From an uncultured Senegalimassilia sp. (GTDB lineage: Bacteria; Actinomycetota; Coriobacteriia; Coriobacteriales; Eggerthellaceae), in assembly GCF_934636665.1 (NCBI RefSeq), contig NZ_CAKUAT010000012.1, positions 19,470-83,469 of the forward strand: a stretch of DNA of 64,000 nt. The letters are read 5' to 3'. Shown here in pieces: positions 20,871-56,997 of this stretch (its first letter is position 1; each line of letters starts with the position of its first letter). The translations under genes and the position numbers were made by a program. The notes beneath the pieces are model-generated. The model made no database searches. It was not told where the DNA came from and worked only from the letters and a program-made list of their open reading frames with translations.

Positions 20871-21011
20871 CCGATCCGCTTCGCTTACACCAACTGTCTC
20901 GACACGATCTCCGGGTCGTGGACCGCCGTCCGCCCGCCTTCGGTGATATCTGACCAAGGCGGCTTGCATCAACGATCGGCGTACTACTACAAACCGAGGT
21001 TTGCATAACTG

Positions 21012-22990: not shown

Positions 22991-23319
22991 AATAACCTCC
23001 TGTGTTTTGCGCTGGCAGCCAGCCAATTAAACTTTTGTGCCGGATCAAACAGGTTCATTATAGTCGATGGCTTACGGGCTTCGGCTTTTGCGGCATGCTG
23101 CCTTCGTCGCTGACGTACGGAAAACGCAACCAGCCGAATCAACCAATAGGCAGGAGACGAGGTCTTTCTGCTTTGGTTCAAGCCTTGTGAATCAGCTATA
23201 GACGACTGTGCATATTCTGCTAAAGGTTCATCGGCCCGGATTTTCGCGATGCTGCCCATTTATTGATGAAGAGTTGTAATTTTGTTTATCTTGCTTGTCG
23301 GGATGAATCTCCTTATCAA

Positions 23320-23790
23320 GCTGTAGCGTCAGTGGCTTTGCGCACTTTTAGGTAGTCGCCGGCACGGCTACTCTTTGAGCAGAGACGCGTCCAGGTATCG
23401 ACGGGAGCCCCATTCGCTGTCGGCGACGTATTTCAGGCGGGCGGCAACCAGCATCAGCGCGGATTTCCCGTCGGGGAACGTGCCGACAACGCGGGTACGC
23501 CGCCTGATCTCCCTGTTGAGCCGCTCGATGGCGTTGTTCGTGCGGATGCGCCGCCAATGCTCGCGGGGCATCTCGCAGTACGTCAGCGTCTCGGCGAAGC
23601 CTTCGCGCACGACCTTTGCGGCCTCCTTCAGCCTCATCGACTCGAGCTCGGCTGTCACCGACTCGGCCTTGGTCGCCGAGGTGAATCTGAATCTGCCCCA
23701 GATCCGTTGACAAGTCGATTTCCGTTTCGGTTGGACTGGGACTGTTTTATGGACATCCGGAATCGAGCTGATGAGCGCACTGCCGCTCAT
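23320..23790 (-). mobile_element. IS256-family remnant (C-terminal ~140 codons of transposase + IR)
   Basis: Near-identical to the C-terminus of the 26298..27450 copy; abuts the IS3 element. Confidence 0.7.
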
Positions 23791-25015
23791 ATTCCACGGG
23801 CGATAGGTTGCCGAGGGACGAATGCGGCCGCCTGGTATTGTAATACAGCTCGATGAACTTGAATATTTCCTGCCTGGCCTCTATCCGGGTGTCGTACTTG
23901 CGATCGAGGGGAAGCTCCCTTTTCAGGGTCTTGAAGAACGACTCCATGACGGCGTTGTCGTAAGGGCAGCCCTTGCGGGAAAACGATTGGACGAACCCGC
24001 GATTCTCGAGCTCCCTGCAAAACCTGCTCGAGGTGTATTGGCTGTCTCTATCCGTGTGCACCATGAGTCCTTCTTCCGGATTTCCCTGTTCACAGCATTG
24101 TCAAGGGCGTCGATTACCAGATTCTCGTTGATGCGGGGGGCACTTGCCATCCGACTATCTTGCGAGAGAACAGGTCGAGGTAGGTGGCCAGGTAGAGCCA
24201 TCCTTCTCGTGGGTATGTAGGTGATGTCGCCGCACCACACGCTGTTCTTCTTTTGGACGGAGAATTCCCTGTTCAAGACATTGGCCCCTTTGTCCGAGGC
24301 CTTTCCGCCCCTTCTGTACTTCTTGGGGCCCCTGTAGGATGCCGGCCCTTTCCTCGCCATCATGCGCTGCACGGTCTTGCCGTTCGCAACGATGCCGATC
24401 TTGCGAAGCTCGACGACGATCCGCCTCGACCCGTACCTGCGATTGTTGGCGTAGAAGATGTCCTCGACGAACGGCTCCAGCGCCTCGTGGGCTATCTGCC
24501 TCGATGATTTGGGGCGGTTCAGGAAGGCATAGTATCCGCCTCTGCTGACGCCCAGCGCCCCGCATGCCTTCTTGACGCTCATCCCATGCTCGCCGGTCCT
24601 CACGAACTCGAACCTCACGCTTGGGCTTGCCTCGAGAAGGCCCGGAATTTCTTTAGTATCGCGACCTCCTTGCGGAGCTCCTCGTTCTCCTTCTGAGCTT
24701 CAGCATCTCGTGATCCTTGTTCGCGACGGGGTTGCCGCTTCCGGGGAACGCGTCCTCGCCGTCGGCCTCATATTTGCCGCCCACCTTCTGAGGGTGCAGC
24801 ACGGCACGTTGAGCCGATCGGACAGCCCCTTGACCGGGATCTCTCCCTCGAGAACCAATCTCGCGACGGAGAGCTTGAATTGCCTGTCGTAGCGTTTTCC
24901 TGGCATAGTTTGAACACCTTTCCAATCGAAACGCTCGATTCTCCGTGTCCATTATATTGTCCCAGTCCAGTCCTCCCAGTCCTCTTCTGGTCCAGGATTT
25001 CCACCGCAGTCCCAA
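23740..25015 (-). mobile_element. degenerate IS3-family element (orfA and orfB both frameshifted)
   Basis: orfA-like MPGKRYDRQFKLSVARLVLEGEIPV…TLRRW; orfB pieces 23923..24618 and 23747..24064 (…DNAVMESFFKTLKRE…RPHSSLGNLSPVEYE); IR ggtccaggatttccaccgcagtcc at 24990-25013. Confidence 0.7.
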
Positions 25016-25086
25016 TCGGCTATCTTATTAATTTCTATTGATGGATACACGGAATTTGCGTTGCGCAAAGAAGGGAAGATGCAAAG

Positions 25087-26157
25087 GTGCTTCAACTATT
25101 TCCGGTGCTTAATTATCAATTAAAAAACAAGCGTGAGCTAACCCGCCATGAATATCGTCATGAATGGCGTAAGGTGATTGAATATGATGACGTTATGGGA
25201 GTGGTTCGGCCTGTATTAGTCGCTCAGGTCGTTGCTTTTATCGCTTCAGTGCTCTTGTTCTCAGGGAAAATTGCAATAGGCTATTTAGCAATCAATATGG
25301 TTGAACCATTCGATGCGCGAGTTCGGCAGATTTTTTCATCATTTAGGGATGACCCTGCCGGCTTTCTGTCGTTCGCGGTATTGACATTCAGTGTTTGCGT
25401 TTTCTTTTGGTTCTATCTGAAAAAGGATTTTGTTACTAAGTTTGCGTTAAGGAAAGCCATTCTGAGAGACACTTGTGCAAATCGCGCTTCTTATTCAAGA
25501 CGTGCAATTACGTCGTCAAATGCGAGCACGGTTAATTTTGCTGTACAGTGTGCGATTGCCGTTTTAGCGGCAACATTGCTAGTTTCTTCGTTGTTTCGGC
25601 TTGAATTATCGACAACCCTAATGGCTCTCGTGGCGTATGCGATTTCTGTCGTTCATATCTGGTCTTTATTTCGAATAAAGGATGGCGAGAAGACAGCATG
25701 CGGATGCAAAGTTAAGTGTTGTTGCGCGATTCTTGCTACAATAGCTGTTGCCATTGTATTGATTGCTTACGTTGAGTCATTTGGCGATTTTCTTGGTGGT
25801 CTACAACCAATACGGAATTTATGTTTGACGATAGCATATCTTGCTGAATCTTTTTGGCTTGTGATGTTTGGCATTTGGTACTTGCTGCTCTTTTATGAAT
25901 GGCGAATCCCGAAACAACGAGTAAGTTGCATCAAGAAGAAACAAAAAGTCGATCTTCAGACGATCAACGATGCAGATGCAGGCAAAAAAGGCACATTCCG
26001 AGATTGGTTAAAAAAGGACATAGAAATAATGTGGATTGTCGCTGTTGCGCTAATTCCTGTTCTCGCAGTGATGATTATTGAGTCAGCTCAGCTCTTGTGT
26101 GTGCTAATAGGCTTACTGTATCAGTTGCTTAATCTTGTAGTTCAGCCTGTATGGTAA
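25087..26157 (+). CDS. polytopic membrane protein (multiple TM helices), AT-rich insert
   Basis: Hydrophobic segments throughout; ~40% GC island between IS elements. Confidence 0.5.
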   Translation: MLQLFPVLNYQLKNKRELTRHEYRHEWRKVIEYDDVMGVVRPVLVAQVVAFIASVLLFSGKIAIGYLAINMVEPFDARVRQIFSSFRDDPAGFLSFAVLTFSVCVFFWFYLKKDFVTKFALRKAILRDTCANRASYSRRAITSSNASTVNFAVQCAIAVLAATLLVSSLFRLELSTTLMALVAYAISVVHIWSLFRIKDGEKTACGCKVKCCCAILATIAVAIVLIAYVESFGDFLGGLQPIRNLCLTIAYLAESFWLVMFGIWYLLLFYEWRIPKQRVSCIKKKQKVDLQTINDADAGKKGTFRDWLKKDIEIMWIVAVALIPVLAVMIIESAQLLCVLIGLLYQLLNLVVQPVW

Positions 26158-26261: not shown

Positions 26262-27525
26262 GTGCCGTCAATAGTTTTGCGCACTTTTAGCTAGCCGTCA
26301 GCACGACTGCTCTTTGAGAAGCGACACGTCCAGGTAGCGGCGGGAGCCCCACTCGCTGTCGGCGACGTACTTCAGGTGGGCGGCCACCAGCATGAGCGCG
26401 GACTTGCCGTTGGGAAAGGTGCCGACCACGCGGGTGCGCCGGCGTATCTCCCTGTTCAGGCGTTCGATCGCGTTGTTCGTCCGGATGCGCCGCCAATGCT
26501 CGCGGGGCATCTCGCAGTACGTCAGCGTCTCGGCGAAGCCGTCGCGCACGACCTTGGCGGCCGAGGCCTCGCGCGACTCCATCGCGTGGATGGCCTTGAG
26601 CATGGCCGCGACCTGGGAGCGCTTCGATTTCGGAGCCTTGGCGAGGACGTTGCGGTAGAAGTGCACGGTGCAGCGCTGGTATTTGGCGCTAGGGAAGACC
26701 TCGGCGATCGAGCCGACCATGCCGGCGGCCTTGTCGCCGGCGAACACGCGAACGCCGCGCAGCCCGCGGGACTTGAGCCACGACGGGAAGTCGCGCCAGC
26801 CCCCGGCCGACTCGGCGAAGCCCTCGGCGCACCCGATCGCCTCGCGGTAGCCGTCCTCGTTCACGCCGATCGCCGCCATGACGGCGACGTTCTCGTAGGA
26901 GCCTCCCCAGCTGCGCTTCAGGTAGACGCCGTCGACGTAGACGTACGGGCATTCGCAGGCCAGGGGGCCTGCATCGCCGCTCCTCGGCCGCCTTGAAAGC
27001 CTTGTCGTTGAGGTTTGAGGCCGTGCCGGCGGAGACGCCCGCGCCCCACAGGATCTCGCTGACGTCCTCGATGCGGCGCGTGGGCACCCCGGCCAGGTAC
27101 ATCTCGATGATGGCCTCCTCGACGCTGGTCTCGCGCCTCTTGCAGCGCTCGACGACGGCGGTGGCGAAGCGCATGCCCTTGAGCTTGGGCATCTTGAGCG
27201 TGAGCTGGCCCGACGTCGTGGTGAACCCGCGCTCGTAGTGCCCGGCGCGGTACGCCGCGCGCTCGTCGGTGCGCTCATAAGGGCCGGCGCCGACGAGCCG
27301 GTCGGCCTCCTCGTCGGGCATCGCGTTGATGGTCTCCTCGATGGTTTTCCCGACCAGCTCGCGAAGCTCGGACTTCACCGCCTCCTCGTCGAATGATGCG
27401 ATTGGGTTGGACATGACCTGCCTCCTAGCATGATTGAATTCGACACTCAAATCATACCGACGGCACGCGCCATGTCTTTTCTCTTTCCTGGGCGTGTTCA
27501 GCTTTCAAAGTGCGCAAATATTTTT
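26262..27525 (-). mobile_element. near-complete IS256-family insertion sequence with one frameshift in the transposase (pieces 26689..27450 and 26298..27278)
   Basis: N-terminal MSNPIASFDEEAVKSELRELVGKTIEETINAMPDEEADRLVGA…, DDE region and conserved C-terminus; imperfect IRs at both ends. Confidence 0.75.
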
Positions 27526-28212: not shown

Positions 28213-28860
28213 TCATGATCGGCCTTTCTGGTCGGATGCGGAGAGGGCTTTTGCGAGGGGCTCGAGCAGGGCCGCTCGCCGTTTGTTTTCGCCGAGCTCG
28301 TCGAGCAGGCTGCCAAGCTTCGCAGAGTCGATGAGACCTTTGGCCGCGGCGTCGCGGAAGGCGCCTTCGACAAGCGACGGGTCCTCGCAGTCGAGGCACA
28401 GATCGGCAAGCGTTCTCTCGGCGCGGGTGACAGGCAGCCCGCCCATCCAGGCCATGTCGCCTTCGTCGACGTTTCTCACCCCAAAGCGTGCCGACTCGAT
28501 TTTTGAGTTGATGCGCTCGGACGCGTAGATGCGGTAGGGGGAGAGGTGGAAGTCCCCGATTCCCAGGAGCCATGCAGCCGTAGAGCCACCGACGGCCACG
28601 CCGTCCCACTTAGCTTGCCGCTCCCATGAGAACGCTGTCGATGCCGTGAGCTTCCAGATCGCGGCCAGCTCGTCGGTCTCCGAGCTCGGCGCACCAGAGA
28701 GGCGATACGCGCCGTGGGCGACGCGCTCGAGGCGCCCGACCTTGCAGGCGTGGGAGAGGGCGTTCCTGCTGATGCCGAGGCGCTGTGCCTGGGCAGTGGT
28801 GAAGACGCCCTCCGATGCCGAGAGCTCGTCGATGGCGGCTATGTTGTTTGCATACTTCAT
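28213..28860 (-). CDS. AbiEi-family antitoxin/transcriptional regulator; no AbiEii partner adjacent
   Basis: N-terminal VFTTAQAQRLGISRNALSHACKVGRLERVAHGAYRL and C-terminal LPVTRAERTLADL match AbiEi. Confidence 0.7.
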   Translation of the reverse strand: MKYANNIAAIDELSASEGVFTTAQAQRLGISRNALSHACKVGRLERVAHGAYRLSGAPSSETDELAAIWKLTASTAFSWERQAKWDGVAVGGSTAAWLLGIGDFHLSPYRIYASERINSKIESARFGVRNVDEGDMAWMGGLPVTRAERTLADLCLDCEDPSLVEGAFRDAAAKGLIDSAKLGSLLDELGENKRRAALLEPLAKALSASDQKGRS

Positions 28861-29058
28861 GTTGCGATTGTACGAAAATTTCAGACATTTGCAACATCGA
28901 AGTGTCACACGCCGACTATGCGATTGAAGCAGGGCCAATCGAAGGGGGACAACGCCGCGTTGATTCTGGCCTTATTGAAAATCTCGCCACGCGATTCACT
29001 CAGATTTGCCGTTTCGCTAAATCGCTGGGTTTGTGTATGCGTCGACGCTGATGCGAAG

Positions 29059-29233: not shown

Positions 29234-29422
29234 TTGTTTTTCGTCTTGGCAAAAGGGATGAGCGTCGTGGGCCCGCGCCCTGCGCTGCCGAACGAGGTGG
29301 CAACCTACAACGATTACCAGCGCCAAAGGCTGCTGGTGAAACCCGGCATGACCTGCTATTGGCAAACCCGTCGAAACCGCGACTCCATAACCTTCGACGA
29401 GTGGGTTGACTTGGATCTGTGA
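29234..29422 (+). pseudogene. 3' fragment of sugar transferase gene, copy 3 of 3 (ends …DEWVDLDL*)
   Basis: ~90% nucleotide identity to 8790-8945. Confidence 0.7.
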
Positions 29423-29558
29423 GACGGGTAAGAACGTGTCGGCGGTCAAGGTCGATCGCTACCTACAGCAGCTGGGTTTTCGCATGGTGATCGTGCCCAA
29501 GGGCGCGGACGTGGATGTGACCGAATGAGGCGGCGTTAACCTCGGCGGGCGCGAAAAC

Positions 29559-30488
29559 TCATTGCGGGGTGTCGGGCCGCCTTTCAACAACCTCTATTTT
29601 GCCATCCATGCCGGCTATCCAGCCGCGGAACTGGGGGCTGTCGATTACCTTTACCCGCACGCGTGCGGTTTTGCCGTCAGGATTCACCGCAACATGCCCT
29701 TTGAGCCTGTCTCCGAAATGGTCGTACAGCGGGTTCATCATCTTCTGTTCGTTGACCTGAAGCGTTATCCATTTCGATGTTCCTAGAAACATGCCGAACT
29801 GCGTGCATTCGAAATCCTCCAGGTCGAAAGCGTTGATTTTCGCGCTTACTGCGCCGTCCACGCAGGTGTCGAGAACTTGTTCCATGCGATCGAGTCGCCG
29901 CGCTATGACCTTATCGCGCTCTTCGCTGAAGGAAACCATATAGTAGCAGTCGTTGATGTGCGTGAGCAGAATCGGGGTTTCCGTCTTGGTCTCCCTGTAT
30001 CGGGATTTCTTCTCCAGGTCGAATCCTATGTCAAGATACTCGAAGGATACCTTGTGCCGCGGCGATGCGGCTAGCGCCCCTTGGATAACCTCGATATTGT
30101 GAAATACCTGATCATTCTTGGTTTTTGGTCGGCGACCCAGGCGAATCTCGGCTTTCAGGGATTGCGATTCGCCATGCAACCCAAGGGCAAGAATGGACTC
30201 CACAAGGTCTCTTGACGTTTGCTCATCGATCGATCTGGAGCTTTGAACGATGTCGATAAGCATCTTGAGCTCGTTTTGCTGAAACCGCCGCGAGGAAACG
30301 TAATACTCGAATGTGTGGTGCTTTTCTCGTGTGATGTCGATTCCGAAATCCTGCAACGTTTTGATGTCGCTGCGAATCGCGCGCTGGTTCGCTTCGGTGT
30401 GGGGCAAGCCAAGCCTATCGAGCAGTTGCTTGACGGAGAACCGATGCGTTCGGTCGCTCTCTTCTTCGAGAATCGTCTTTACCGTCAT
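29559..30488 (-). CDS. HTH + WYL-domain transcriptional regulator (BrxR/CapW-like), divergent from the two-gene cassette
   Basis: N-terminal wHTH and central/C-terminal region typical of WYL regulators that control defense islands; start at MTVKTILEEE. Confidence 0.65.
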   Translation of the reverse strand: MTVKTILEEESDRTHRFSVKQLLDRLGLPHTEANQRAIRSDIKTLQDFGIDITREKHHTFEYYVSSRRFQQNELKMLIDIVQSSRSIDEQTSRDLVESILALGLHGESQSLKAEIRLGRRPKTKNDQVFHNIEVIQGALAASPRHKVSFEYLDIGFDLEKKSRYRETKTETPILLTHINDCYYMVSFSEERDKVIARRLDRMEQVLDTCVDGAVSAKINAFDLEDFECTQFGMFLGTSKWITLQVNEQKMMNPLYDHFGDRLKGHVAVNPDGKTARVRVKVIDSPQFRGWIAGMDGKIEVVERRPDTPQ

Positions 30489-30683
30489 AAGGCGGTGCTT
30501 ATGCTTGGCTCCACATCGGTTTGACTGCTTGCTGGTCATGGTGCCGTCCTTGCTGAAAAGCCGTTATAACGACCTGATAAGGTCGTGAAAATTCTAACCC
30601 GTTGACTACGCTTATGAGCAACCATTTATGCAAATGGCCTGATGACCTCGGTAAAAACGAACTGGTGTGCAGGTATGCGTGAA

Positions 30684-30763
30684 CAGGGACGGTGAACAGG
30701 GGACGGAGGTGTGTTCAGGATGCGTCTTCGGGAAGTGCAAGCCTTTTCCTGAACACACCTCCG
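30684..30763. repeat. 80-bp palindromic element: 26-bp perfect inverted arms gaacaggggacggaggtgtgttcagg / cctgaacacacctccgtcccctgttc around a 28-nt loop containing tgcaagcctttcc
   Basis: Read from sequence; related copies at 36739-36818, 56969-56997, 60218-60246, 62855-62904. Confidence 0.85.
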
Positions 30764-30818
30764 TCCCCTGTTCACCCTGTTCGCCTAGCGGAAACGATTG
30801 GAGGCAGGTGTGGCGGAA

Positions 30819-33800
30819 ATGGAGAAAGCAAGGAAGCATTCGGGGATTGAGCGGGTTTTGGGCCAGTCCATCGGCGTTGATCCTGAGCAATGCGGGCTGC
30901 TTTTGCTGGCTGGCCCGGTTGGCGCGGGCAAGACGTACTCGTCTATGAGCCATATCGCTGATCAGCTTATAGCGTTCGGACCGAAGTGCAGGCGGTTCGT
31001 CTTTGTGACGAACGTGAAGCGGAATCTTCCCGTTGACGAGTTGCTGCAAATCCTCGATGAGCGCGGCCACCCCGAGCTTGCCGCGTACGTGGTTAAGCTC
31101 GACTCGAATCTAGGGATGTTCCAAAGCAATATCAACGCCGCAAAAGGCGTTATGCCAAGCGCCCCGTTCTCCTATTGGAAAAAAGGACCCAAGAAGCCCG
31201 GGTCGAATGAGCGCGCGGTCATCAAGGCCGAATTCAACATTCGGAACCTTCCCGAGCTGCAAGAAGCGGAGAGGCTGCAGCGGATTCTCGAGGAGACGAG
31301 GAACCTCCCTCTGCATGTCGGTGCTGCTCGGCGCAAGGCAATCGAAGGCGCTGAGGAGGAAGCGGAGAAGGCCGAGAGCAAGCTTCGACGACACATTTCG
31401 TCGGTATTTGCGTCCATGTGCAAGCTTGATGAAGACGGCTACCGCTTGATGACGCGGCAGGAGAAACGCGAACTTGTCGAGAAAAGCGCCTGGTGGGAAT
31501 GGCTAAGAGTGCTGTATCCGTCGGTCCTGACGCACAAGAAGCGCGTGCTGTTCATGAGCGTGAACAAGCTGCTGGTGAAAAACTCCCCCATCATCGAGCC
31601 GTCGGAAAGCATTTGGGAAAGCGACTTGCTAAAGGGATCAGTCGTGATCATCGACGAGTTCGAGCTATCGAAGAGCGTCATCAACGACTTCCTGATTCGC
31701 GAAAGCGTTGGCAAGATGGCCGACATGGTAAGCATGCTCCGCATGCTTATGGGCCGCGCGCTCGAGGGTCGCCAGATCGACGGCAAGGGCGGCGACGGCG
31801 ACGCGGGTGCGGCGTTCACGAGCGAGCTGTTCCGCAGCCCTTCGAACAGGATCGGCTGCGGGCCTGAGCTTCGTGCGGAGTTCGGCGCCATCGTGAACGC
31901 CGCGGAAGAGGCGTATCTCGAACTGCACCTGGACAAACAGTTCCGCCTGAGCGACAGGCTGCGCTATAGGAACCAGCCGTTTCTCTTCAACGACTTCCAA
32001 AGCCATATCGTCGATGTCGAAGACAGTTCATGGTCGGCGATCCGTTTCCTTGAAAGCCAGAACACCATCGAATTCGGTTCGGGCACTCCGCCCTATGCTG
32101 GGGGCGAGGCTTCGATAACGGGGCTACGTGAAGTCGATTCCTACTCCGTCCCGTTGTTGCTGAGCAGGCTCGAAGGCCTTGTCAGATGGATCGTCAGCTG
32201 GATCGCCCGCGTCGCTGAGAATTACCAAGCGGTCGTGGCCGAGGACGCCGATCAGGGAAAGCGTCCCGAAATCAGTTTTGACCAGGCTGTCGGCACGGTG
32301 CTGTCCGAGCTCAACATGATGGACGAGGTGCATGGCGAGCTGAACCCGGCGCGTCGGCGCGTCATCGAGATGGCGCATGAGGAGCGGGCGCGCCGCGCGG
32401 CGGTCGATGACGGGGCAAGGGATGATGATCCGGCAGATTTGAGCTTGTATCACAAGGGCTTCAGGGTGCACTCGTTCACCGAGTCCGCGAAGCATGACAC
32501 GTTAACGCGTATGGAGCGCTGTGCGCTTTCTTGCACGGCAGAGCGCAAACTCATCGAGTTGAGTCGCCGCAACTTCGTGGTGGGCATTTCTGCGTCCTTG
32601 GATATACCGTCTGTTCTGGGCAATTACGATATCGATTACATCAAGGCGGCTCTCGGCGACCGATGCATCTTGCTGGATGCAGCCCAGCGACAGGGGATCG
32701 AGGAAGACTACCGACGCAGCGTAAGCCGCTACGATAACGTGGAAATCCGCGTCAGCAAGATTTCCGACGTGGATTCCGAGGGGGAGTACAGCGAGAAGGC
32801 GTGGCTTGCCGTGCTCGATGATGCGGTGGTTGCTCGCAAGGCTTTCAACAAGGTTGCGATGGACTTTTCCACCGCTGACGGACGCTTGACGTTCGGGCAG
32901 CGGCGAGTGTTGAAGGTTTGCGCCGCGTTCAAGGGATTCTGGAAGGCCGATGATGCTCGCGCCATGCTTTGCGTTTTGAATGCGTTGCCGAAGGCCGGCG
33001 GAAGCGGGTTCGACCTGATGAAGCTCAAAGACGTGTTCGGGATGGTCTTCGAGCAGCTAGGGATCGACGGCAACGTGGATGACGCGTTTTACGTTCTCGG
33101 CGGCGGCAACGAGGAGTTTGAACGCGCGAAGAAGCAGGCGCTTTCGCGTTTGGCGGCGGGTGAGAAGCTGTTCGTGATCACGGCGTATCAATCCGCGGGT
33201 GCGGGGCAAAACCTGCAATACAAGATTCCCGAAGGCGCAACCCCCGTTCAAATCAACGATCGCCCCGCATCTGAGGAAATGGATTTCGATTGCCTGTACG
33301 TGGAGGCCCCAACCCATACATCCCCGGTGATCACCGGAAACGAGAAGGTGGACGAATACCAGGTAGTGCACCATATCTTGGGATGCGAGTACCTGTACGA
33401 GAATGCTGAAATCAGCAGAGGGGCGTTGCTCAGGAGCGTTTCGGAGGCGTTGCGCGCGCTTGGCGGTTCCGGGGTGGATTACGGCTACAAGGCAACCGAT
33501 AGCGCGCGGCTGTTCGGGGCGAAGCAGGTGTATCAGGCTGTGGGCCGTTTGAGCAGGACCAACATGAAGATGCCGGTGATTAGGCTGTTTGTCGACGCCG
33601 GCCTTATGGAAGGCGTTCCCTTGGGCGTGCTGAAGTCGTGCGGGCTTACGTTCACGCCCGAGTTCGGGGCGTTGGTGGACGCGTTTGACGAGCCGATTCC
33701 CCAGTCTTCGAAGGATGTCAAGCGCTTGCAGCGCAGGGCGGCGCGCGCGTCCGACAGGTCGCGGGCCTGCATTAACTCGCTTTTGGGCTCCGGCTGGCGG

Positions 33801-34562
33801 GACGATGCTCGCAAGGCGTGGTTTGACCTGGGGAATCAGGTTCTCAAGCATCCGACGCTTCCCGATAGCTGGAACGAGGTCCCGTATATGGAGCGGTGTT
33901 ATTACGTCGAGCTTGATGCGAAAAGGACGTCGTATCGGTACACCGCAAAAGATGATTTCGCGTCGGTCGAGGTGCTCTTCGATCCACCCGCCGGTACAAA
34001 AAGCTTCGAAGTGAGCGAAAAAGCCGCGCGCCTGGACGTGCTCATGCGCATTCCTGGTATGCGGAGCTATTTCGAGCAGTGCGGATACGCTACGAAATGG
34101 GAGGCTTCGACAAGGATCATGACCCCCATTGTTGCCGAGAGCATCTACAAGGGGCGCCTTGGCGAAGTGTGCGGGCGTTTCGTCCTCGAGCAAAGCGGCA
34201 TTGCGGTCGCGGATATCGACGACGCTTTCAGGTTCGAGAAATTCGACTTCGTGCTGCCTGGCACGCTGGGCGACCAAGAGGTGTTTATCGATTTCAAGCA
34301 CTGGAAAAAGCAGTCGGATAGAACGGGGTGGGACTCGGAGAAGCTTATCGATTGGGTGTTCGCGAAGATGGAGGCGATCGACGCCAAGAAGGCTATCGTC
34401 GCTAACGTTTTGCTTCCTGACGAGGGCGATTATCGGGAGACGTACCGTTCAAAAGACGGGCGAAGGCTTCTTGTGGTGCCTGCGCTCGTCAAAGGCGACT
34501 GCTCATTCGACGAAACGGCGATTCAGGCTATAAGGAGGTTTATCGATGGCGTTGTTGACTAA
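30819..34562 (+). CDS. large P-loop NTPase / SF2-helicase-like protein with C-terminal PD-(D/E)xK-like motif (candidate helicase-nuclease defense protein)
   Basis: Walker A LLLAGPVGAGKTY, DExx box VVIIDEFE, helicase motif V/VI-like VITAYQSAGAGQNL and QAVGRLSRT, C-terminal FDFVLPGTLGDQEVFIDFKHW; alternative TTG start at 30798. Confidence 0.8.
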   Translation: MEKARKHSGIERVLGQSIGVDPEQCGLLLLAGPVGAGKTYSSMSHIADQLIAFGPKCRRFVFVTNVKRNLPVDELLQILDERGHPELAAYVVKLDSNLGMFQSNINAAKGVMPSAPFSYWKKGPKKPGSNERAVIKAEFNIRNLPELQEAERLQRILEETRNLPLHVGAARRKAIEGAEEEAEKAESKLRRHISSVFASMCKLDEDGYRLMTRQEKRELVEKSAWWEWLRVLYPSVLTHKKRVLFMSVNKLLVKNSPIIEPSESIWESDLLKGSVVIIDEFELSKSVINDFLIRESVGKMADMVSMLRMLMGRALEGRQIDGKGGDGDAGAAFTSELFRSPSNRIGCGPELRAEFGAIVNAAEEAYLELHLDKQFRLSDRLRYRNQPFLFNDFQSHIVDVEDSSWSAIRFLESQNTIEFGSGTPPYAGGEASITGLREVDSYSVPLLLSRLEGLVRWIVSWIARVAENYQAVVAEDADQGKRPEISFDQAVGTVLSELNMMDEVHGELNPARRRVIEMAHEERARRAAVDDGARDDDPADLSLYHKGFRVHSFTESAKHDTLTRMERCALSCTAERKLIELSRRNFVVGISASLDIPSVLGNYDIDYIKAALGDRCILLDAAQRQGIEEDYRRSVSRYDNVEIRVSKISDVDSEGEYSEKAWLAVLDDAVVARKAFNKVAMDFSTADGRLTFGQRRVLKVCAAFKGFWKADDARAMLCVLNALPKAGGSGFDLMKLKDVFGMVFEQLGIDGNVDDAFYVLGGGNEEFERAKKQALSRLAAGEKLFVITAYQSAGAGQNLQYKIPEGATPVQINDRPASEEMDFDCLYVEAPTHTSPVITGNEKVDEYQVVHHILGCEYLYENAEISRGALLRSVSEALRALGGSGVDYGYKATDSARLFGAKQVYQAVGRLSRTNMKMPVIRLFVDAGLMEGVPLGVLKSCGLTFTPEFGALVDAFDEPIPQSSKDVKRLQRRAARASDRSRACINSLLGSGWRDDARKAWFDLGNQVLKHPTLPDSWNEVPYMERCYYVELDAKRTSYRYTAKDDFASVEVLFDPPAGTKSFEVSEKAARLDVLMRIPGMRSYFEQCGYATKWEASTRIMTPIVAESIYKGRLGEVCGRFVLEQSGIAVADIDDAFRFEKFDFVLPGTLGDQEVFIDFKHWKKQSDRTGWDSEKLIDWVFAKMEAIDAKKAIVANVLLPDEGDYRETYRSKDGRRLLVVPALVKGDCSFDETAIQAIRRFIDGVVD

Positions 34563-36714
34563 CAAGCTGAGCATTTCCTTGGTGCACGAGGAGTTTGACA
34601 AGCGGTATGACGTGTTCGAGGTGACGAAAGAGGGCAAAGGGCATCTTTCTTGGTCGTCGCGCGTTTTCGAGGCGTTTGGCGCCCCGTATATCCTTTCGAT
34701 TCTCGGTCAAGGTGGGGATGACCCGTTCTATATCCTTGCCCCAAAAGGCATCGTGTCGGTGAGGGGGCTCCGCGATCATTTCGAGAAAAGCTACGGCGGT
34801 GTTATCGAGGATGAGGATTTGGAGTCAGCCGACGTGGCAACAAGCCTGCTTCCAAAACAGGTGCCAAGCCGCAATGTGTCAGAGCATATTTTGGTGCAGC
34901 TGCTGCTTAACGCGCTTTTTGCGGGCAACAGCGAGAACGGCCCGTCCCTGCAAAACGTCGCCGGGCACCTCTATTGCTTCAAAACAGGCAGGGATTGGGT
35001 TAAGAAGACGAAGAGCGGGCGCAATCTGCACATTATCGGACTGGAGCTCAAGGTGACGCCGGAATCGTTGCTGAAGGTGAATGTTAGAACGTTCACCAGG
35101 GCAAATGCCGCCGGTCTGATATTCGATGGCAGGAAGAAAAGCGAGTACCCGCGGTACGTGGTCGACTTCGATGGCCCAACTATGCGTCGTGCTTCCCCAG
35201 GTGAAAGCCCTGAGGCCGACAACGTTTTCATTCAGAAGCAGTACGAGGGGCAGAAAAGCAAGATCCCGTTTTTGAAATACGGCAATCGAAAGGCTTTTGC
35301 GAACTCGAAATGCGGGGTTATCCAAGAGGTCGTCGAGCGGTTTAACGAGACGTATGCGGGCATGGCGAGCATATCTTTCAAGGCGATTGATGATTCCAAG
35401 CGCGCGCCCGTTCCCAAGAAGCTGATGAAAGCCGATTACCTCGCGTGGTTCGCGCGAGACGAGTACGTGGTGGTTGACGTTGCTAAAGACGGCGCAAGCA
35501 GGAAGGCGTGCGAATTTGTTGCCGATTGGCTTGCGTTCGATGAGTATCTCAGCGTGCGTCCGCGCATTGTGGACAGTGCCGTCGCCGGTGCCAACAACCT
35601 GCTGATCCTTCATGAGAAAGCGTATTACGAGGACCGGGGGATCAACGACCCCTATGTTGCTTCCGTGCTTGAAGGCGCAGCGTGCCAGCATTTGACCGTC
35701 GAGACCGTGCAATCTGAGTTCGGTAAGCCGAAGGAAGACAGTGGCATGCGTTTCGTCATTCCGAAATGCCTGGTCGAAGCCGCGGTTAAGCGCGATATTT
35801 GCGATGCTGCTATGCGCTTGTACGATTGGAGCGCGCTCGAGTGCGACGGTCCGCTGGTTTTTGCACTTTGCGGGCCCGAGTCGAAGGAGGAAAAGAAGGA
35901 GCGCGAGAGGGACAAGTCGCCAAGGCGCTATTCGTTTCTTGAGGTGAGCTCGGCGGGCGCACTGGCGTTCTATCAGGGATGTTCGGACAACGCGGCCTCG
36001 GGTTCCAAGTGGGATAAGCTCGCAGATGTGTTTACAAGCGAGTGGTCGTCTGAGACGGAGGGTTTTGCGATCAACGCCGCCGGCGACATCGATGCGATCG
36101 AGCTGACGGATGGATTTCCCATTCCCGACCTTGCCACGATTAAGCGCGCTGTGGAGAGCATCGACTGGTCGCTGCCGAAAAGCGACGTGCTCGAGGCGGT
36201 ATCCACTCTTACGGAAGACCCTGCTATCGACATCGCATTGCGGGCACTGTGCGAGTGGGTTTCCGAGATGCCGGATTCTTTGGTGAAGGCATCGAAGCTC
36301 AACTCGTTGGTTGTGGATGCTGCAAAGATGGTCGATGAGAAATACCCGGCGCGGCGTATTCGAGAATTGGTTGACGCTCGGCTGGAGGAGCGGTTCTCAA
36401 GGCGCCTTTTGACCGGCGTGCCCCGCGACAAGGAAGCGCTTGCGACAACGTACGAGCCGATCGTCAAGATGCATTGCGTTCGGGAAGACGATTCGCTGCT
36501 GTATTGGGTGAGCAACTTCGATGGCCTAAGCCGGATGGGTCGGGAAAACGGCTGCGTCATCAGGAGTGTTCGCAGCGTCAACGGCGAGAACCCGTTCTTC
36601 GCGGATTTGCTCGAAACGCTCGTTGTGCCCATCGCGCGCCTGGGCAACGCCTCGGTGCTGCCGCTGCCCTTCAAGTACCTCCGCGAATGGATGGAGAACG
36701 TAGCGGTGGAGTGA
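34546..36714 (+). CDS. 722-aa protein of unknown function, translationally coupled to the helicase-like gene (17-nt overlap)
   Basis: Long ORF with coding-like composition; no recognisable motifs. Confidence 0.75.
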   Translation: MALLTNKLSISLVHEEFDKRYDVFEVTKEGKGHLSWSSRVFEAFGAPYILSILGQGGDDPFYILAPKGIVSVRGLRDHFEKSYGGVIEDEDLESADVATSLLPKQVPSRNVSEHILVQLLLNALFAGNSENGPSLQNVAGHLYCFKTGRDWVKKTKSGRNLHIIGLELKVTPESLLKVNVRTFTRANAAGLIFDGRKKSEYPRYVVDFDGPTMRRASPGESPEADNVFIQKQYEGQKSKIPFLKYGNRKAFANSKCGVIQEVVERFNETYAGMASISFKAIDDSKRAPVPKKLMKADYLAWFARDEYVVVDVAKDGASRKACEFVADWLAFDEYLSVRPRIVDSAVAGANNLLILHEKAYYEDRGINDPYVASVLEGAACQHLTVETVQSEFGKPKEDSGMRFVIPKCLVEAAVKRDICDAAMRLYDWSALECDGPLVFALCGPESKEEKKERERDKSPRRYSFLEVSSAGALAFYQGCSDNAASGSKWDKLADVFTSEWSSETEGFAINAAGDIDAIELTDGFPIPDLATIKRAVESIDWSLPKSDVLEAVSTLTEDPAIDIALRALCEWVSEMPDSLVKASKLNSLVVDAAKMVDEKYPARRIRELVDARLEERFSRRLLTGVPRDKEALATTYEPIVKMHCVREDDSLLYWVSNFDGLSRMGRENGCVIRSVRSVNGENPFFADLLETLVVPIARLGNASVLPLPFKYLREWMENVAVE

Positions 36715-36738
36715 GAGTGACTGAGCGGGGGGAGGCGT

Positions 36739-36818
36739 GAACAGGGGACGGAGGTGCGTTCAGAATGCAACTTTGCGAAATGCAAGCCTTTCCCTGAACA
36801 CACCTCCGTCCCCTGTTC
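36739..36818. repeat. second copy of the 80-bp palindromic element (same orientation, one arm mismatch), directly after the two-gene cassette
   Basis: gaacaggggacggaggtgcgttcag…tgcaagcctttcc…ctgaacacacctccgtcccctgttc. Confidence 0.85.
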
Positions 36819-36854
36819 TCGCTGGCCGTTGTCGCGCGACTTCGCCCTTTCGCC

Positions 36855-37647: not shown

Positions 37648-38400
37648 TCAGCCTCGCAGGTATGGGGCGAGGGTGTTGGCGCACTCCTTGGCCATGATGT
37701 TCGCGCGTTTGAGGACTTTTGCGCGCAAGTCGTCGTCGAGTAGGACGATTTGCGCGATGAGCGCCTTCGCGATTTGCAGTTCGTCGAGCCAGGGCTCGTC
37801 TTCCCAGAGGTCCTTCAGCGCGTCCGTGGCGTCAAGGGCCTTGGCGTATTGCGCGTCCGACGACTTGGCCAGCGCGCCTTCCTTGTTATTGCGGATTTCC
37901 CAGACGAAGGTGCACGCGGGGTTCCCGATCTGGGTATGCGCCTTGACCGAGCGGTTGTCCGGATGTGCCGCCGCTCGCGGGTTGGTTCGTGCGAGATATG
38001 CGGCGCGACTCGGCAGCGCGGCCGAGATTTGCCCCGTGATCGCGAGCAGCTCCTCGGCGTGTGCGCAATATATGTCGCAAACCTGGAACGGGGTTCTGCG
38101 CTCGGCTTCGACAAGCTGCTCGTCTGGCGTGTTCCACGCGCTGTCCACGCGCATGGCGTTCGCGTGGGCGATGCGCTCGCTCAGGCTTTTGCGTGCGCTT
38201 GCCCCGTTTGGGTTTGCGCAGGCGTCCGCTTCGCGCGGGCTTTTGCGGGCGCTCGTCTCGTTTGGAGTTGCGTGGGCGTTTGTTTCGTTAAAGTTTGCGA
38301 AGGCGTTCGTCTTGTTCTGGCTTTTGCGGGCGCTTGCCTTGCCCGAGTTTGCGCAGGTGCTCATTTCGTTCGGACTTTTGTGCACGTTCATTTCGCTCAT
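37648..38400 (-). CDS. protein with N-terminal imperfect tandem repeats (…ANFNETNAHATPNETSARKSPREADACANPNGASARKS…) and a C-terminal globular domain
   Basis: Start MSEMNVHK 14 nt downstream of the T4CP stop with AGGAGC RBS; the DNA shows ~36-39-bp tandem repeats at 38170-38400; the ORF-track N-terminal extension is antisense to the T4CP gene. Confidence 0.5.
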   Translation of the reverse strand: MSEMNVHKSPNEMSTCANSGKASARKSQNKTNAFANFNETNAHATPNETSARKSPREADACANPNGASARKSLSERIAHANAMRVDSAWNTPDEQLVEAERRTPFQVCDIYCAHAEELLAITGQISAALPSRAAYLARTNPRAAAHPDNRSVKAHTQIGNPACTFVWEIRNNKEGALAKSSDAQYAKALDATDALKDLWEDEPWLDELQIAKALIAQIVLLDDDLRAKVLKRANIMAKECANTLAPYLRG

Positions 38401-38413
38401 CTTCGCTCCTTCC

Positions 38414-39883
38414 TTAGGCTGCAGCGCCGGAATCGCTGTCCAGGTTGTCGGCGTCGAACAGCGTATCGATCCAGATCTCGTCGTCCGGTCCCGGCGGGGG
38501 AAGGAAGTCGAGATCGTCGTCTTCGCAGATCGAAAACGCTTTGTGAGTCTCCGGTGCCTCCCAGGTTGCAGCCGCTTCGCCATCTGCGACAGCTTCGTCA
38601 TCTGCGGATACTTCCCAATCCCCGGGCATCTCGCAACTCGCAATAAACTCGCGATACCTCGGGTGCTGCTCGAGCGCATAGGCGGGCTCGCACACGCCGC
38701 GGTGGCCGCGCTCGAACAGCCACCAGTTTCCGGCCGGCGTCTCGAGAAGCGTCGAGGGCAGCTTGTTGGCACGCAGCGCGAAATACTTCGCAGTCCGCTC
38801 GTCCTGAAATGCCAGTACCAGGTGCCGGTCGCAATTGCCGATGATCGAGTTCGCCACCGCCTGGTCGTAACGCGCCTCAAGCTGGCTGACCGTTTGGCAG
38901 ATGATGGTGCAGCTGACCTCGCGGCTGCGGATGACGGAGAGCACGTCGTCGAAGCCGGGCAGCGTCAGGTTCGCAAAATCGTCCAACATGAAGCGAACGG
39001 GCACGGGCAGACGGCCGCCATCGCAGCGCGTGTCCGCGAAATCGCACAGGCTTGAGAACGCTTGGCGTACGAAAAGGCTGGTCAGAGGCGCCAAACTGCG
39101 GTCCATGTCATCCATGGTCACGAACAGCGCGCGCCGCTCGCGCCCAAGGTCGCAAAAGTCGATTTGCTGCACTTTGCGAAACGATGCGAGCGCGCCGTCG
39201 AACGTCAACGGCAGCAGGTTTGCGGCGATGATGCCCATAATGCTCGAATGCATCTTGTCGGCGCGCGCCGTACTCCTTGCGCGGCGGAACAACGAAGCCG
39301 CGTAGCTATCGGGGTCCTGCTTGGAAAGGTCGGCGAACAGCGCCTCGGCGCTGCCTTCGCACGCCTGCTCGTACACGCTCACCACCGACGCCATGTTCCA
39401 TTCGCGATCGGGCAGCGCCTCGAACACGTAGGCGATGTAGCTGGCAACGTAGTTGGCCGCCGCGCCCGCCCAGAACGGGTCGTCGCCCATGTCCGCACGG
39501 GGGAACAGCGCGCTGGCGATCGCGATGATGTCCTGCGCAAGAGGGCGACCTTTGCGCCAGCGAACGTGGTGAAGCGGGTCGTAGCCGATCTCGCCGTCCA
39601 TGGTGGTGAAGTCAAGGCGGTCGACGATGTACCCGTTGGCGCGCAAATACGGCGCCATCTCGTCATATAGGCGGCCCTTGGAGTCGAGCACGATGTAGGA
39701 ACCATCGCACTGCAGCAGGTTGGGCTTCAGGAAATTGCGCGTTTTGCCCGAGCCGGAACAGCCCAGAACGAGCACGTTGTTGTTGAGGCCGGTCGCCCAC
39801 GAGTCCATGCTCGCGGCGTGTCCGGAGGTGAGGATGAGCTGCCCCGCGTAGGAGGCGCGGGCGTTCGCACGGTTGTCTATCAT
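38414..39883 (-). CDS. VirD4/TraG/TraD-like type IV coupling-protein ATPase domain (no N-terminal TM segment)
   Basis: Walker A LVLGCSGSGKT, DSKGRLYDEM, Walker B-like RFMLDDFANL characteristic of T4CP family. Confidence 0.7.
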   Translation of the reverse strand: MIDNRANARASYAGQLILTSGHAASMDSWATGLNNNVLVLGCSGSGKTRNFLKPNLLQCDGSYIVLDSKGRLYDEMAPYLRANGYIVDRLDFTTMDGEIGYDPLHHVRWRKGRPLAQDIIAIASALFPRADMGDDPFWAGAAANYVASYIAYVFEALPDREWNMASVVSVYEQACEGSAEALFADLSKQDPDSYAASLFRRARSTARADKMHSSIMGIIAANLLPLTFDGALASFRKVQQIDFCDLGRERRALFVTMDDMDRSLAPLTSLFVRQAFSSLCDFADTRCDGGRLPVPVRFMLDDFANLTLPGFDDVLSVIRSREVSCTIICQTVSQLEARYDQAVANSIIGNCDRHLVLAFQDERTAKYFALRANKLPSTLLETPAGNWWLFERGHRGVCEPAYALEQHPRYREFIASCEMPGDWEVSADDEAVADGEAAATWEAPETHKAFSICEDDDLDFLPPPGPDDEIWIDTLFDADNLDSDSGAAA

Positions 39884-39969
39884 GGCTGCTTTCGCTTTCT
39901 GTTACAGGTTTGCGCTGGTGAATAGGGGGTTGGGGAAGCGGTTGCTACGCCTCGCGGCAGGCGCCCCCG

Positions 39970-40566
39970 TCAAAGGCTGGTGATGACGCGGTCCGCGAGG
40001 CCCGCTTCGACGGCTTCTTCCGCTTCGAAATAGGTGTCGGAGGCCGTAAGCTCGAAGACGCGATCAATCGGCATGCCGCTGTGCCGCGCGATGACGCCGG
40101 CGGTGATGTCTCGGATGCGCATGAGGTCGTCGGCCCGGGCCTTCACGGACAGCGCGCTGCCGCCCGCGCCGGCGCCGATGAGCGGGTCGTGGATCATGAC
40201 GCGGCTGTGCGGCAGGACCTCCCGCTCGTCGCCCGCGATGAACAGCAGCGCTCCCATGCTTGCCGCCATGCCAAGGCATACGGTGCGGATGGGGCAGCTC
40301 ACGGCTTGCATGACGTCGTAAAGCGCCAGGCCGGACTGGACTTCGCCGCCCGGGCTGTTGATGTAAAGCGTGATGGGCGCCGTGGGGTCTTGGCGCTGGA
40401 GGTGAAGCAGGCCGCGGATAACGACGGCGCAAGATTCAGCATCCACCGAGGTCATAAGCTCGAGTTCGCGTTGGTCGAGCATTTCGTCGCGGATGTCGAG
40501 GCGGTTGAGGCCCTCTGCAGTTTCGCGGATGATCTGAGGTTGATAGACGAATGTATATTCGCTCAT
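39970..40566 (-). CDS. clpP: ClpP-family serine protease subunit
   Basis: YINSPGG, GMAASMGALL (active-site Ser), MIHDP motifs; 198 aa. Confidence 0.8.
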   Translation of the reverse strand: MSEYTFVYQPQIIRETAEGLNRLDIRDEMLDQRELELMTSVDAESCAVVIRGLLHLQRQDPTAPITLYINSPGGEVQSGLALYDVMQAVSCPIRTVCLGMAASMGALLFIAGDEREVLPHSRVMIHDPLIGAGAGGSALSVKARADDLMRIRDITAGVIARHSGMPIDRVFELTASDTYFEAEEAVEAGLADRVITSL

Positions 40567-40883
40567 GACGAGCTCCTTCCGAGGGCGAGACGGGACAACC
40601 TAGGACGCAACAGGGAATGCGCAAATCGGCGGCAAATAGCATGAGCCACCACGCGCAGGGCGTCGCATATAAGGTTGTATGGGAAATCCGGAGCACGGCA
40701 GCTGCCCCGGCAACTCCTATAGGCGCAAGGCCTATCTGCCAGGAGGCGGGTCTCGCGACCCTCGGGTGCTAAAACAGTAGCACGCGCCAAAACAGCGCGC
40801 AAGTGGGAAGCTGGGAAATTTTAGGGGCGCCCGCTGTTCGCGTTCATGCCTGCGTCCGTGCTCGATGCTTGGGCCCGCGTCAT

Positions 40884-41360
40884 GCGACTTCTGGGCGGTT
40901 TTGCAGGCGGTTTTGGCTTGGAAGGGCGCGGGGCATCGGCATTTCCCCAGGTCGGCGATCCCTGTATCGTACCGCACTCGCGGAAAACCGCCCAGAAGCC
41001 CAGACTCATGGCAAAATCAGGGCTCATTTTCTGCAAAACCGTCCAGAAGTCGTGGGGTGCCGACATTGGGCATCGAGCGGTTGCGGTTGAGACCGATCCC
41101 CGGCGCCGATGCGCGCAATGGAAGGGCAGGCCTTGCCGGGGTCTCCGTCTCCGCGCTTTCGTTCGATGGGGCGATTTTGTTTGGTCATGCGTAGTTGGCG
41201 GGCTGATGGCGCGTTGCCGCAAGGCCGTTGTGGTGCTTTCGCTAAGAGCGATTGTGCGGGTGCGGTTCAGCGCCGACATCGTTGACCTGGGGAAACGCTG
41301 CTGCTTTGTGCTCTTTTGGACTCGAGCCGCCTGTAAAACCGCTCAGAAAATGAAGATGGG
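40884..41360. repeat. cluster of inverted/direct copies of the motif caaaaccgcccagaagtcg (40884-40906 reverse; 40983-41000, 41031-41057, 41328-41360 forward) within a 1.3-kb gene-free region
   Basis: Direct reading; related pair at 57116-57137 (reverse) / 57222-57252 (forward). Confidence 0.6.
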
Positions 41361-44016: not shown

Positions 44017-44263
44017 CTTCCTCGCCCCTTCTCTTCCTTATTCCGTGCCTGATTCCTGGCAGTTAGTGCTACGTCCCCAAATGTCTTGGTTGGGGGCGGT
44101 GATTTTTGTGCTCTCGTTTCCCCTGGTCAGGGGATGGTTCGTATATGCGTACCTAGTTGTTTTGGCGGGTTTTGGGGATGATGCAGGGTGGATTGGAAGT
44201 TTGTGCGCGCTGCGTCGGGGGCCTGTCGTCGCTGCGGGGCGCGCTGGCGGGAAGGAGTGCGGA

Positions 44264-56968: not shown

Positions 56969-56997
56969 CGTGAACAGGGGACGGAGGTGCGTTCACG
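56969..56997. repeat. single-unit copy of the palindromic element (cgtgaac-aggggacggaggtgc-gttcacg) after the TetR gene
   Basis: Direct reading. Confidence 0.7.

Follow-up and report, generated by a model that had tools for sequence, protein, structure and literature searches.

A predicted WYL-regulated DdmDE operon at the edge of a defence island in a Senegalimassilia-like gut bacterium

Introduction

DdmDE systems combine a helicase-nuclease, DdmD, with a long-C prokaryotic Argonaute (pAgo), DdmE. The steps of their mechanism and the roles of individual residues have been shown experimentally for the systems of Vibrio cholerae (Vc) and Lactobacillus casei (Lc) (bioRxiv 10.1101/2024.05.10.593530, 10.1101/2024.10.09.617351). 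The two systems differ in guide use, LcDdmE taking 5′-OH and 14-21-nt guides and VcDdmE only 5′-P guides under 15 nt (10.1101/2024.10.09.617351). In V. cholerae a WYL-type regulator, WYL^DE, is encoded upstream of ddmDE, and WYL^DE mutations abolish ddmDE induction (bioRxiv 10.1101/2025.11.13.688357). Here we analyze a 64,000-nt stretch of DNA from an uncultured Senegalimassilia sp. (contig NZ_CAKUAT010000012.1, positions 19,470 to 83,469; hereafter the window), in which a regulator gene and two large overlapping genes lie between positions 29559 and 36714. An initial annotation, made from the letters alone, had read the two large genes as a defence module under a WYL regulator that could not be placed in a named system. 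We find that the locus is very probably a WYL-regulated DdmDE operon, predicted by homology to encode a DNA-guided, Argonaute-directed helicase-nuclease that clears plasmids and perhaps further kinds of invading DNA.

Results

Organization of the locus

Three open reading frames (ORFs) make up the locus. A WYL regulator gene on the minus strand (29559-30539, 326 aa) is divergent from the ddmD homologue (30810-34562, plus strand, 1250 aa) and the ddmE homologue, which encodes the long-C pAgo (34546-36714, plus strand, 722 aa). All three ORFs of the initial annotation, at 29559-30539 (−), 30798-34562 (+) and 34546-36714 (+), are present. The 1254 aa given there for the first large protein agree with a frame that is open from a TTG at 30798; the start noted with it, ATG 30819, would yield 1247 aa and does not fit. 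Judged from the sequence, the likeliest ddmD start is GTG 30810, because a GGAGG at 30800-30804 lies 5 nt before it and the resulting 1250 aa equal the length of homologue P0010, which is 94% identical to the window DdmD. Residue numbers for DdmD count from this GTG.

The proposed 17-nt overlap of the two large genes was confirmed, with the ddmD stop codon (TAA) at 34560-34562 and the ddmE ATG at 34546. An internal ribosome-binding site for ddmE, AGGAGG at 34533-34538, lies 7 nt 5′ of this ATG and was graded strong. Based on the overlap and this site, translational coupling of ddmD and ddmE is plausible, in agreement with the earlier reading of a helicase-nuclease with a coupled partner gene.

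The first large protein matches the helicase-nuclease DdmD

Neither large protein gave a usable match in Pfam or NCBIfam, the lone hit being NPHP3_N (E = 0.06). The PADLOC model for DdmD (PDLC04130) matches the 1250/1254-aa protein (E = 1.2e-35). A sequence search of the PDB returned LcDdmD (9ix4_A, E = 6.3e-48) in three co-linear stretches over residues 29-1232 (around Walker A, around motif II, and 552-1232), together with VcDdmD (8u0u_A and others, E = 1.9e-33).

The four motifs quoted in the initial annotation (GPVGAGKT, VVIIDEFE, QAVGRLSRT and EVFIDFK) are all present and align with their equivalents in solved DdmD. Consistent with a superfamily 2 (SF2) helicase, GPVGAGKT is aligned to LcDdmD APTGTGKS and VVIIDEFE to LVVLDEFD. 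These place the Walker A lysine at K41, DEFE at 282-285 and motif VI at Q909-T917; G38, G40, K41, T42, D282, E283 and Q909-T917 are invariant among seven DdmD homologues. The five residues of the C-terminal PD-(D/E)xK nuclease (E1119, E1143, D1146, D1161, K1163) correspond to VcDdmD E1059, E1082, D1085, D1100 and K1102 and are likewise invariant in the seven homologues (alignment A2), and K41 corresponds by motif, not by direct alignment, to VcDdmD K55. Residue correspondences here and below were counted by hand from HMMER alignments. The window thus keeps every DdmD residue validated by mutation in V. cholerae; this list, and that of the VcDdmE guide residues, is from Loeff et al. (bioRxiv 10.1101/2024.05.10.593530).

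The second large protein matches the Argonaute-like protein DdmE

The 722-aa protein had been described as without a recognizable domain, and Pfam and NCBIfam are indeed silent for both proteins. This is true of these two databases only, as PADLOC, PDB sequence searches and fold searches all lead to DdmE. The PADLOC DdmE model matches the protein at E = 2.9e-6 (24 bits), and a single-sequence search of the PDB gave LcDdmE at E = 4.8e-7 and VcDdmE at E = 5e-4. A family profile derived from an alignment of the protein with nine database homologues (alignment A1) matches LcDdmE at E = 3e-36, spanning residues 86-704 of 715, and VcDdmE at E = 6e-18, with the alignment confined to the MID region and the C-terminus. 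In a Foldseek search of the PDB with the AlphaFold2 model, the top five matches are all DdmE chains (E from 2.7e-25 to 5.4e-14), followed by Mili/PIWI, Clostridium butyricum Argonaute (CbAgo) and Archaeoglobus PIWI (AfPiwi). Judged over the whole protein and not domain by domain, sequence and predicted model indicate that the 722-aa protein carries the homology and fold of DdmE, whose domains are N, L1, C-APAZ, L2, MID and PIWI.

The residues that hold the guide 5′ end are also kept. Y370, Q381, E411 and K415 in the predicted MID pocket and K710 and E714 at the C-terminus correspond to the validated VcDdmE residues Y363, Q376, E401, K405, K674 and E678. Q381, K415, K710 and E714 are invariant and E411 nearly invariant among the DdmE homologues; Y370 is outside the invariant list and is assigned from the alignment itself (DPY in the window, "Dpy" in the profile consensus). 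Past residue 430, the single invariant acidic residue among 10 homologues is the guide-binding E714, with D427, E466, E499, D528 and E647 conserved in only 8-9 of the 10. Judged by residue conservation, no DEDX-like tetrad is evident in the PIWI domain, consistent with an inactive PIWI.

An insertion in PIWI (INS) is a described feature of long-C pAgos (bioRxiv 10.1101/2024.05.10.593530). In the window DdmE it is located at about 544-626: residues 544-626 are missing from the 597-aa homologues, are helical in the model and coincide with a large LcDdmE insertion relative to the profile, and some members of the wider family are without it. An exhaustive profile search with the 722-aa protein retrieved 1,161 clusters (50% identity) at E ≤ 1e-3, 491 of them at E ≤ 1e-30. 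These matches place the window DdmE as a branch within a large and continuous DdmE family.

The WYL regulator and a candidate operator

The divergent upstream gene had been read as a WYL-type regulator, and PADLOC, Pfam matches across the family, the family profile and the fold search agree on this. PADLOC matches the 326-aa protein to WYL at E = 1.7e-12. Taken alone, the protein falls under the Pfam cut-offs (WCX 3.6e-4, WYL 7.6e-3) and gave zero matches in a single-sequence PDB search. Across its 11-member family, Pfam WYL is found in 9 (best 2.3e-12) and WCX in 4 of the 11, and the family profile matches the solved WYL proteins 7u02 (3e-7), 8tp8 and PafBC. The AlphaFold2 model (pLDDT, predicted local distance difference test, 74) gave 30 Foldseek matches at E ≤ 1e-3, all of them full-length DriD, PafBC, BrxR or CapW. 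Family and model together point to a winged helix-turn-helix (wHTH)-WYL-WCX architecture. Homologues of the regulator lie beside DdmDE at three related loci, L110 (94% identity), L111 (64%) and L001 (25%). As V. cholerae has WYL^DE upstream of ddmDE, the three-gene architecture of WYL, ddmD and ddmE is one already known.

Within the divergent promoter region a palindrome, ACGACCT-GATA-AGGTCGT, is positioned at 30569-30586, where it precedes the start codon of the WYL gene by 30-47 nt. It is perfect in L111 (ACGACCT-TATT-AGGTCGT), whose proteins are 59-64% identical and whose intergenic DNA has otherwise diverged. It has two mismatches in L110 and is absent from L001, where the WYL protein is 25% identical. 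We infer from this pattern that the palindrome is a putative operator of the WYL protein. The best structural matches of the regulator are the activators DriD and PafBC, so that it may act there either as a repressor or as an activator.

Conservation of the gene pair

We compared eight neighbourhoods: the window, L110/L083+L105 (counted once), L001, L111, L113, L003, L114 and L115. The ddmD-ddmE pair is present in all eight with an overlap of 17-20 nt, and is thus conserved as a unit, a check that the initial annotation had asked for. The WYL gene accompanies it in four (window, L110/L083, L111, L001). Among the loci with a WYL gene, L110 encodes a DdmE of 725 aa that is 89% identical to the window protein (overlap 17 nt), with DdmD split into 718 and 332 aa; L083+L105, from the Senegalimassilia metagenome-assembled genome (MAG) MGYG-HGUT-00643, match the window at 92-95% DNA identity, with genes not called separately and the WYL region matched by DNA; L001 (DdmE 63% identical) encodes 1267 and 722 aa (overlap 17 nt) and L111 (59%) 1247 and 725 aa (overlap 20 nt). 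No WYL gene is found at L113 (50%; 1256 and 723 aa; overlap 17 nt), L003 (about 27%; 1161 and 597 aa; 17 nt) or L114 (about 27%; DdmD split into 175 and 985 aa, DdmE 597 aa; 17 nt). The contig of L115 (about 24%; at least 1216 and 596 aa; 20 nt) ends before the WYL position.

A word-indexed search recovered close homologues of the two proteins in 9 and 8 clusters. The closest clusters hold 865 and 900 member sequences, so that ddmD and ddmE of this kind are widespread. Several Senegalimassilia MAG contigs match the window DNA at 92-97% identity. A Megablast search of the PLSDB plasmids with the locus gave zero matches, and nothing points to the window being a plasmid. Among the papers listed when the literature was searched for DdmDE in combination with Actinobacteria, Coriobacteriia or Senegalimassilia, none names both, which is not proof that the combination is unreported.

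Assignment of the locus and alternative readings

From these matches the locus is predicted to be a divergent but intact member of the DdmDE family in a Senegalimassilia-like gut Coriobacteriia chromosome, at the edge of a defence island. The earlier reading of a defence module with a WYL regulator is borne out.

Several observations weigh against this assignment. Identity to characterized DdmE is only about 14-16%, and the single-sequence matches to LcDdmE and VcDdmE given above are weak. Model quality for DdmE is moderate (pLDDT 65; predicted template modelling score, pTM, 0.43), with TM-scores of 0.43-0.49 to DdmE chains. In DdmD, residues ~316-550 are unaligned to solved DdmD in phmmer. 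The regulator structures nearest to ours are the activators DriD and PafBC, with the repressors BrxR and CapW ranking after them. For the clade of the window, any statement on the type of guide, on the range of targets (plasmid or phage) or on auto-inhibition of the dimer would be an extrapolation. In L110 (4531-7747), a relative with 92-95% identity, ddmD falls into two called ORFs (718 and 332 aa); the split may mark a frameshift or nonsense pseudogene, and so a system that decays in some strains, or an assembly error.

We give a small chance to the clade being a functionally distinct DdmDE subtype in Coriobacteriia, in which guide chemistry or length, target range or mode of regulation might differ. 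Instead of small plasmids it might, for example, target the phages or conjugative elements of gut Actinomycetota, and its regulation might proceed by activation rather than derepression. The basis for this is the ~15% identity to characterized DdmE and a WYL regulator closest to the activator DriD.

It is very unlikely that the locus is a decaying or non-functional DdmDE remnant in a degraded island riddled with insertion sequences (IS). The neighbourhood does contain damaged genes, namely a GajB-like helicase gene with an in-frame TAG, an orphan AbiEi, an XRE gene truncated to 29421-29527 and transposase fragments, and ddmD is split in the relative L110. Against decay, both window ORFs are full-length (1250 aa versus 1247-1288 aa in DdmD homologues; 722 aa versus 722-725 aa in DdmE homologues), every catalytic and guide-binding residue is retained, the internal ribosome-binding site is strong, and the close homologue clusters hold 865-900 member sequences.

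The suggestion that the pair is an undescribed two-gene helicase-nuclease defence system, outside named systems and with a partner of unknown fold, is highly improbable. It draws on the empty Pfam and NCBIfam scans, on close homologues being rare in the word-indexed search (8-9 clusters) and on the ~15% identity to characterized DdmE; it is contradicted by significant, co-linear matches of both proteins to DdmD and DdmE models and to published, solved structures, with conserved functional residues, and by the continuous family of 1,161 clusters to which the 722-aa protein is tied. Hachiman, Nhi/Hna, DISARM, Gabija and Lamassu were dropped as candidates for the pair, since PADLOC gave only DdmD and DdmE.

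Hairpin repeats around ddmDE

Two hairpins flank the predicted ddmDE operon. They had been described as identical copies at 30684-30763 and 36739-36818. Both are real and in the same orientation; their positions are 30691-30776 and 36735-36822, and they are 89% identical over 88 nt. The upstream copy, between the regulator and ddmD and probably inside the ddmDE 5′ leader, has 30-nt arms (100% complementary) and a 26-nt loop. The downstream copy, 21 nt past the ddmE stop codon, has 29-nt arms (93% complementary). RNA folding gave a free energy (dG) of -70.7 kcal/mol (z = -10 versus shuffles) for the upstream copy and -63.3 kcal/mol (z = -8.6) for the downstream one.

The 20-nt hairpin arm has 8 matches in the window versus 0.02 expected. 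Further family members are two solo arms (56970-56996 and 60219-60245), both of which contain a GYGAAC...GTTCRC mini-palindrome, and, at 62853-62906, a short-loop hairpin (dG -53 kcal/mol). Just upstream of the copies at 62853 and 30691 there are additional partial GNGAACNGGGGAC motifs. With one genome per species scanned, the 18-nt arm core was found in at least 106 stretches, nearly all from Senegalimassilia or other Coriobacteriia/Eggerthellaceae, and the listed Senegalimassilia and Coriobacteriia stretches often hold several copies per 8 kb. In 746 kb of retrieved sequence we counted 230 arms, with a modal plus-to-minus arm offset of 64 nt, equal to that in the window. L110, the 94% relative, has a hairpin at both orthologous sites, the downstream copy being degenerate. 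The repeat is absent at the DdmDE loci L111, L001, L113 and L003. An Rfam scan of the window revealed no family matching the hairpins.

This distribution indicates that the hairpins are host repeats in intergenic spaces, like repetitive extragenic palindromes (REP) or miniature inverted-repeat transposable elements (MITE), and form no part of DdmDE. With such repeats they share a short length (~86 nt), very stable imperfect palindromes, intergenic positions, many copies per genome, and a range of forms (full hairpins, short-loop forms and solo arms). Compared to known REP/MITE repeats, the window family is without an Rfam match and appears restricted to Senegalimassilia and related Coriobacteriia, in which it numbers hundreds of copies. 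The hairpins may act as mRNA 5′-leader structure and as 3′ stabilizer or terminator, and the leader copy might have been co-opted to tune expression. Scans for intrinsic terminators and sigma-70 promoters around both hairpins gave none above shuffles, with the caveat that these consensuses may not fit Actinomycetota, and no T-tract follows the downstream hairpin.

On the same distribution we rejected the hairpins as cassette ends and as system-specific operator sites. That ddmDE is a discrete mobile unit ending at the hairpins, moved for example by a TnpA-REP/IS200-like enzyme or by inter-repeat recombination, is hardly credible: two same-orientation ~86-nt copies do flank the pair and IS fragments abound in the region, but the upstream hairpin lies between regulator and ddmD and so excludes the regulator, the copies are not identical, the arm recurs at three more window sites and in at least 106 stretches from Senegalimassilia and related Coriobacteriia, no such repeats stand at the DdmDE loci L111 and L001 (59-63%) or L113 (50%), synteny with relatives breaks at 29421 and not at the hairpins, and no case of segment 30691-36822 at other sites with empty-site counterparts was seen.

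Genomic surroundings

The DdmDE locus closes a defence island that comprises Septu, GajB-like, AbiJ-like, AbiEi and Abi_2 genes interspersed with IS fragments. Far upstream are Abi_2 (3894-4895, −) and a DUF4411 gene (6650-7177, −) directly downstream of a gene for an ImmA/IrrE M78 peptidase protein (7177-8577, −). An LmuB-like/PDC-M68B protein with DUF2326 (12433-14031, +) is followed by a 225-aa ORF and then by the GajB-like UvrD helicase (14724-16739, +; E = 6e-99). An in-frame TAG at 16230-16232 breaks the frame of the latter, and directly behind it an ATG opens the UvrD_C part (16233-16739), so that the TAG is either a nonsense mutation or the mark of a split gene. An AbiJ-like protein with an Abi_C domain (17559-18413, +) and a HEC-07-like protein (18540-19973, +) occupy the lowest-GC part of the window (17559-19973, GC 0.45-0.47). 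Septu PtuAB is complete and is flanked by Mutator-family transposase fragments (PtuB, 21012-21698, −, PADLOC E = 1.9e-52; PtuA, 21695-23026, −, PADLOC E = 1.5e-124). The AbiEi antitoxin/regulator (28213-28938, −; PADLOC E = 2e-65) has no recognizable AbiEii partner. Its neighbours, including 26298-27278 (−), are a DUF6933 gene and a Mutator-family transposase, and the stretch looks like an IS-disrupted AbiE module.

The GC content of a block at 11000-26000 is 0.42-0.53, versus ~0.62 elsewhere in the window. At or within it are an rve integrase (9697-11001) and Mutator fragments (20088-20828, 23368-23790), which suggests horizontally acquired, IS-shuffled DNA. The XRE/HTH_31 gene is left as a 3′ remnant at 29421-29527 (+); L110 and L083 carry the intact gene (116 aa), which there converges with the WYL gene. 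All similarity to the window ends precisely at 29421 in both relatives, so the entire left flank, which is the defence island, appears to be a strain-specific replacement. A tRNA scan of the window found none, and hence no tRNA integration site.

Downstream of DdmDE lie genes for TraG/VirD4, ClpP, a nitroreductase and a 2353-aa surface protein with leucine-rich repeats (LRR) and Ig domains. The TraG/VirD4 type IV secretion coupling protein (38414-40566, −, 489 aa) is an orphan adjoining ClpP, with no other conjugation genes recognized near it in the window. This arrangement is conserved in L110 and L105 and is possibly the remnant of an integrative and conjugative element. The space that separates the TraG/VirD4 gene from a 99-aa ORF holds an imperfect 54-nt tandem repeat (38158-38346) in ~2-3 copies that are 69-79% identical; in L110 the region is 83% identical, less conserved than its surroundings. 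A second dispersed repeat of ~170 bp (40883-41057) has 75-82% identical copies in L083 (two), L067 and L110 (three). The predicted surface protein (44045-51106, +) contains BspA-type LRR, Big_1 and Fn3-associated/CHB_HEX_C domains, and GC rises there to 0.69-0.71.

Discussion

Homology to the V. cholerae and L. casei systems allows a mechanism to be proposed for the window DdmDE. DdmE, a long-C pAgo that is probably catalytically inactive, would bind a short single-stranded DNA (ssDNA) guide, with the guide 5′ end in the MID pocket (Y370, K415) and a Mg2+ held by Q381, E411, K710 and E714. Pairing of the guide with invading DNA would open a D-loop. DdmE would then recruit DdmD out of an auto-inhibited dimer, and one protomer would load on the displaced strand and translocate 5′-3′ with ATP (Walker A K41, DEFE). 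Finally, the PD-(D/E)xK domain (E1119, E1143, D1146, D1161, K1163) would nick or degrade the ssDNA, leading to plasmid loss. The WYL regulator probably binds the palindrome at 30569-30586, such that ddmDE transcription would shift on sensing ssDNA or another infection cue. The hairpins would be host REP-like repeats that landed by chance in two intergenic regions and at most tune transcript stability or termination.

The L. casei system (PDB 9ix4, 9iw3, 9ixm) is the best sequence and fold match for both window proteins (Foldseek E = 2.7e-25). It shares with the window the two-gene order, the fusion of helicase and PD-(D/E)xK nuclease, a pAgo with a PIWI insertion and a C-terminal PxPxKYLRE motif. 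It differs in that the window DdmE is only ~14-16% identical, the window DdmD is ~60 aa longer with its central region (~316-550) unaligned, and the window host is actinobacterial (Coriobacteriia). The V. cholerae system (VPI-2; PDB 8u0u, 8u3k, 9ezx, 9ezy) shares the layout of WYL regulator, ddmD and ddmE, all the validated residues of both proteins, and a place in a defence or pathogenicity island. It is further from the window than the L. casei system (DdmD E = 1.9e-33; DdmE profile E = 6e-18), and the window leader has what appears to be an inserted host REP-like hairpin. The window regulator is likened to WYL^DE by locus layout; structurally it is nearest to DriD/PafBC, not BrxR/CapW.

Two more distant comparisons can be made. 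In type I CRISPR-Cas, Cascade-Cas3 is a functional analogy only, in which a recognition module that bears a guide and does not itself cleave opens a loop and brings a helicase-nuclease to the displaced strand, as drawn in bioRxiv 10.1101/2024.05.10.593530. DdmDE, in contrast, has no CRISPR array or Cas proteins, uses DNA guides rather than CRISPR RNA and relies on an unrelated recognition protein of Argonaute fold. Other pAgo-effector systems (long-B BPAN and the short pAgos of SPARTA/SPARDA) also pair an inactive Argonaute with a separate effector, but the effectors there act through abortive infection or collateral damage, and none is an SF2 helicase-nuclease fusion. The 722-aa protein clusters with the long-C DdmE and not with the Argonautes of BPAN or SPARTA/SPARDA, and Foldseek of its model gave distant matches to SPARTA and short Ago (E ~0.1-0.5).

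Our analysis removes a false lead for a novel system. What is new here is limited to the reach into Coriobacteriia, the ~15% DdmE identity, the DriD-nearest regulator and the uncatalogued host repeat family. This hairpin family is an abundant Senegalimassilia repeat, previously uncatalogued as judged by its lack of an Rfam match. Standard tools barely reach the DdmE branch of the window: neither Pfam nor NCBIfam reports it, and PADLOC matches DdmE with just 24 bits, so similar loci may be under-counted in defence censuses. DdmDE with a WYL regulator appears to reach gut Coriobacteriia (Actinomycetota), well beyond the studied Vibrionaceae and Lactobacillaceae, and an intact anti-plasmid system, as predicted here, would matter in practice for plasmid engineering of, and plasmid transfer into, Eggerthellaceae.

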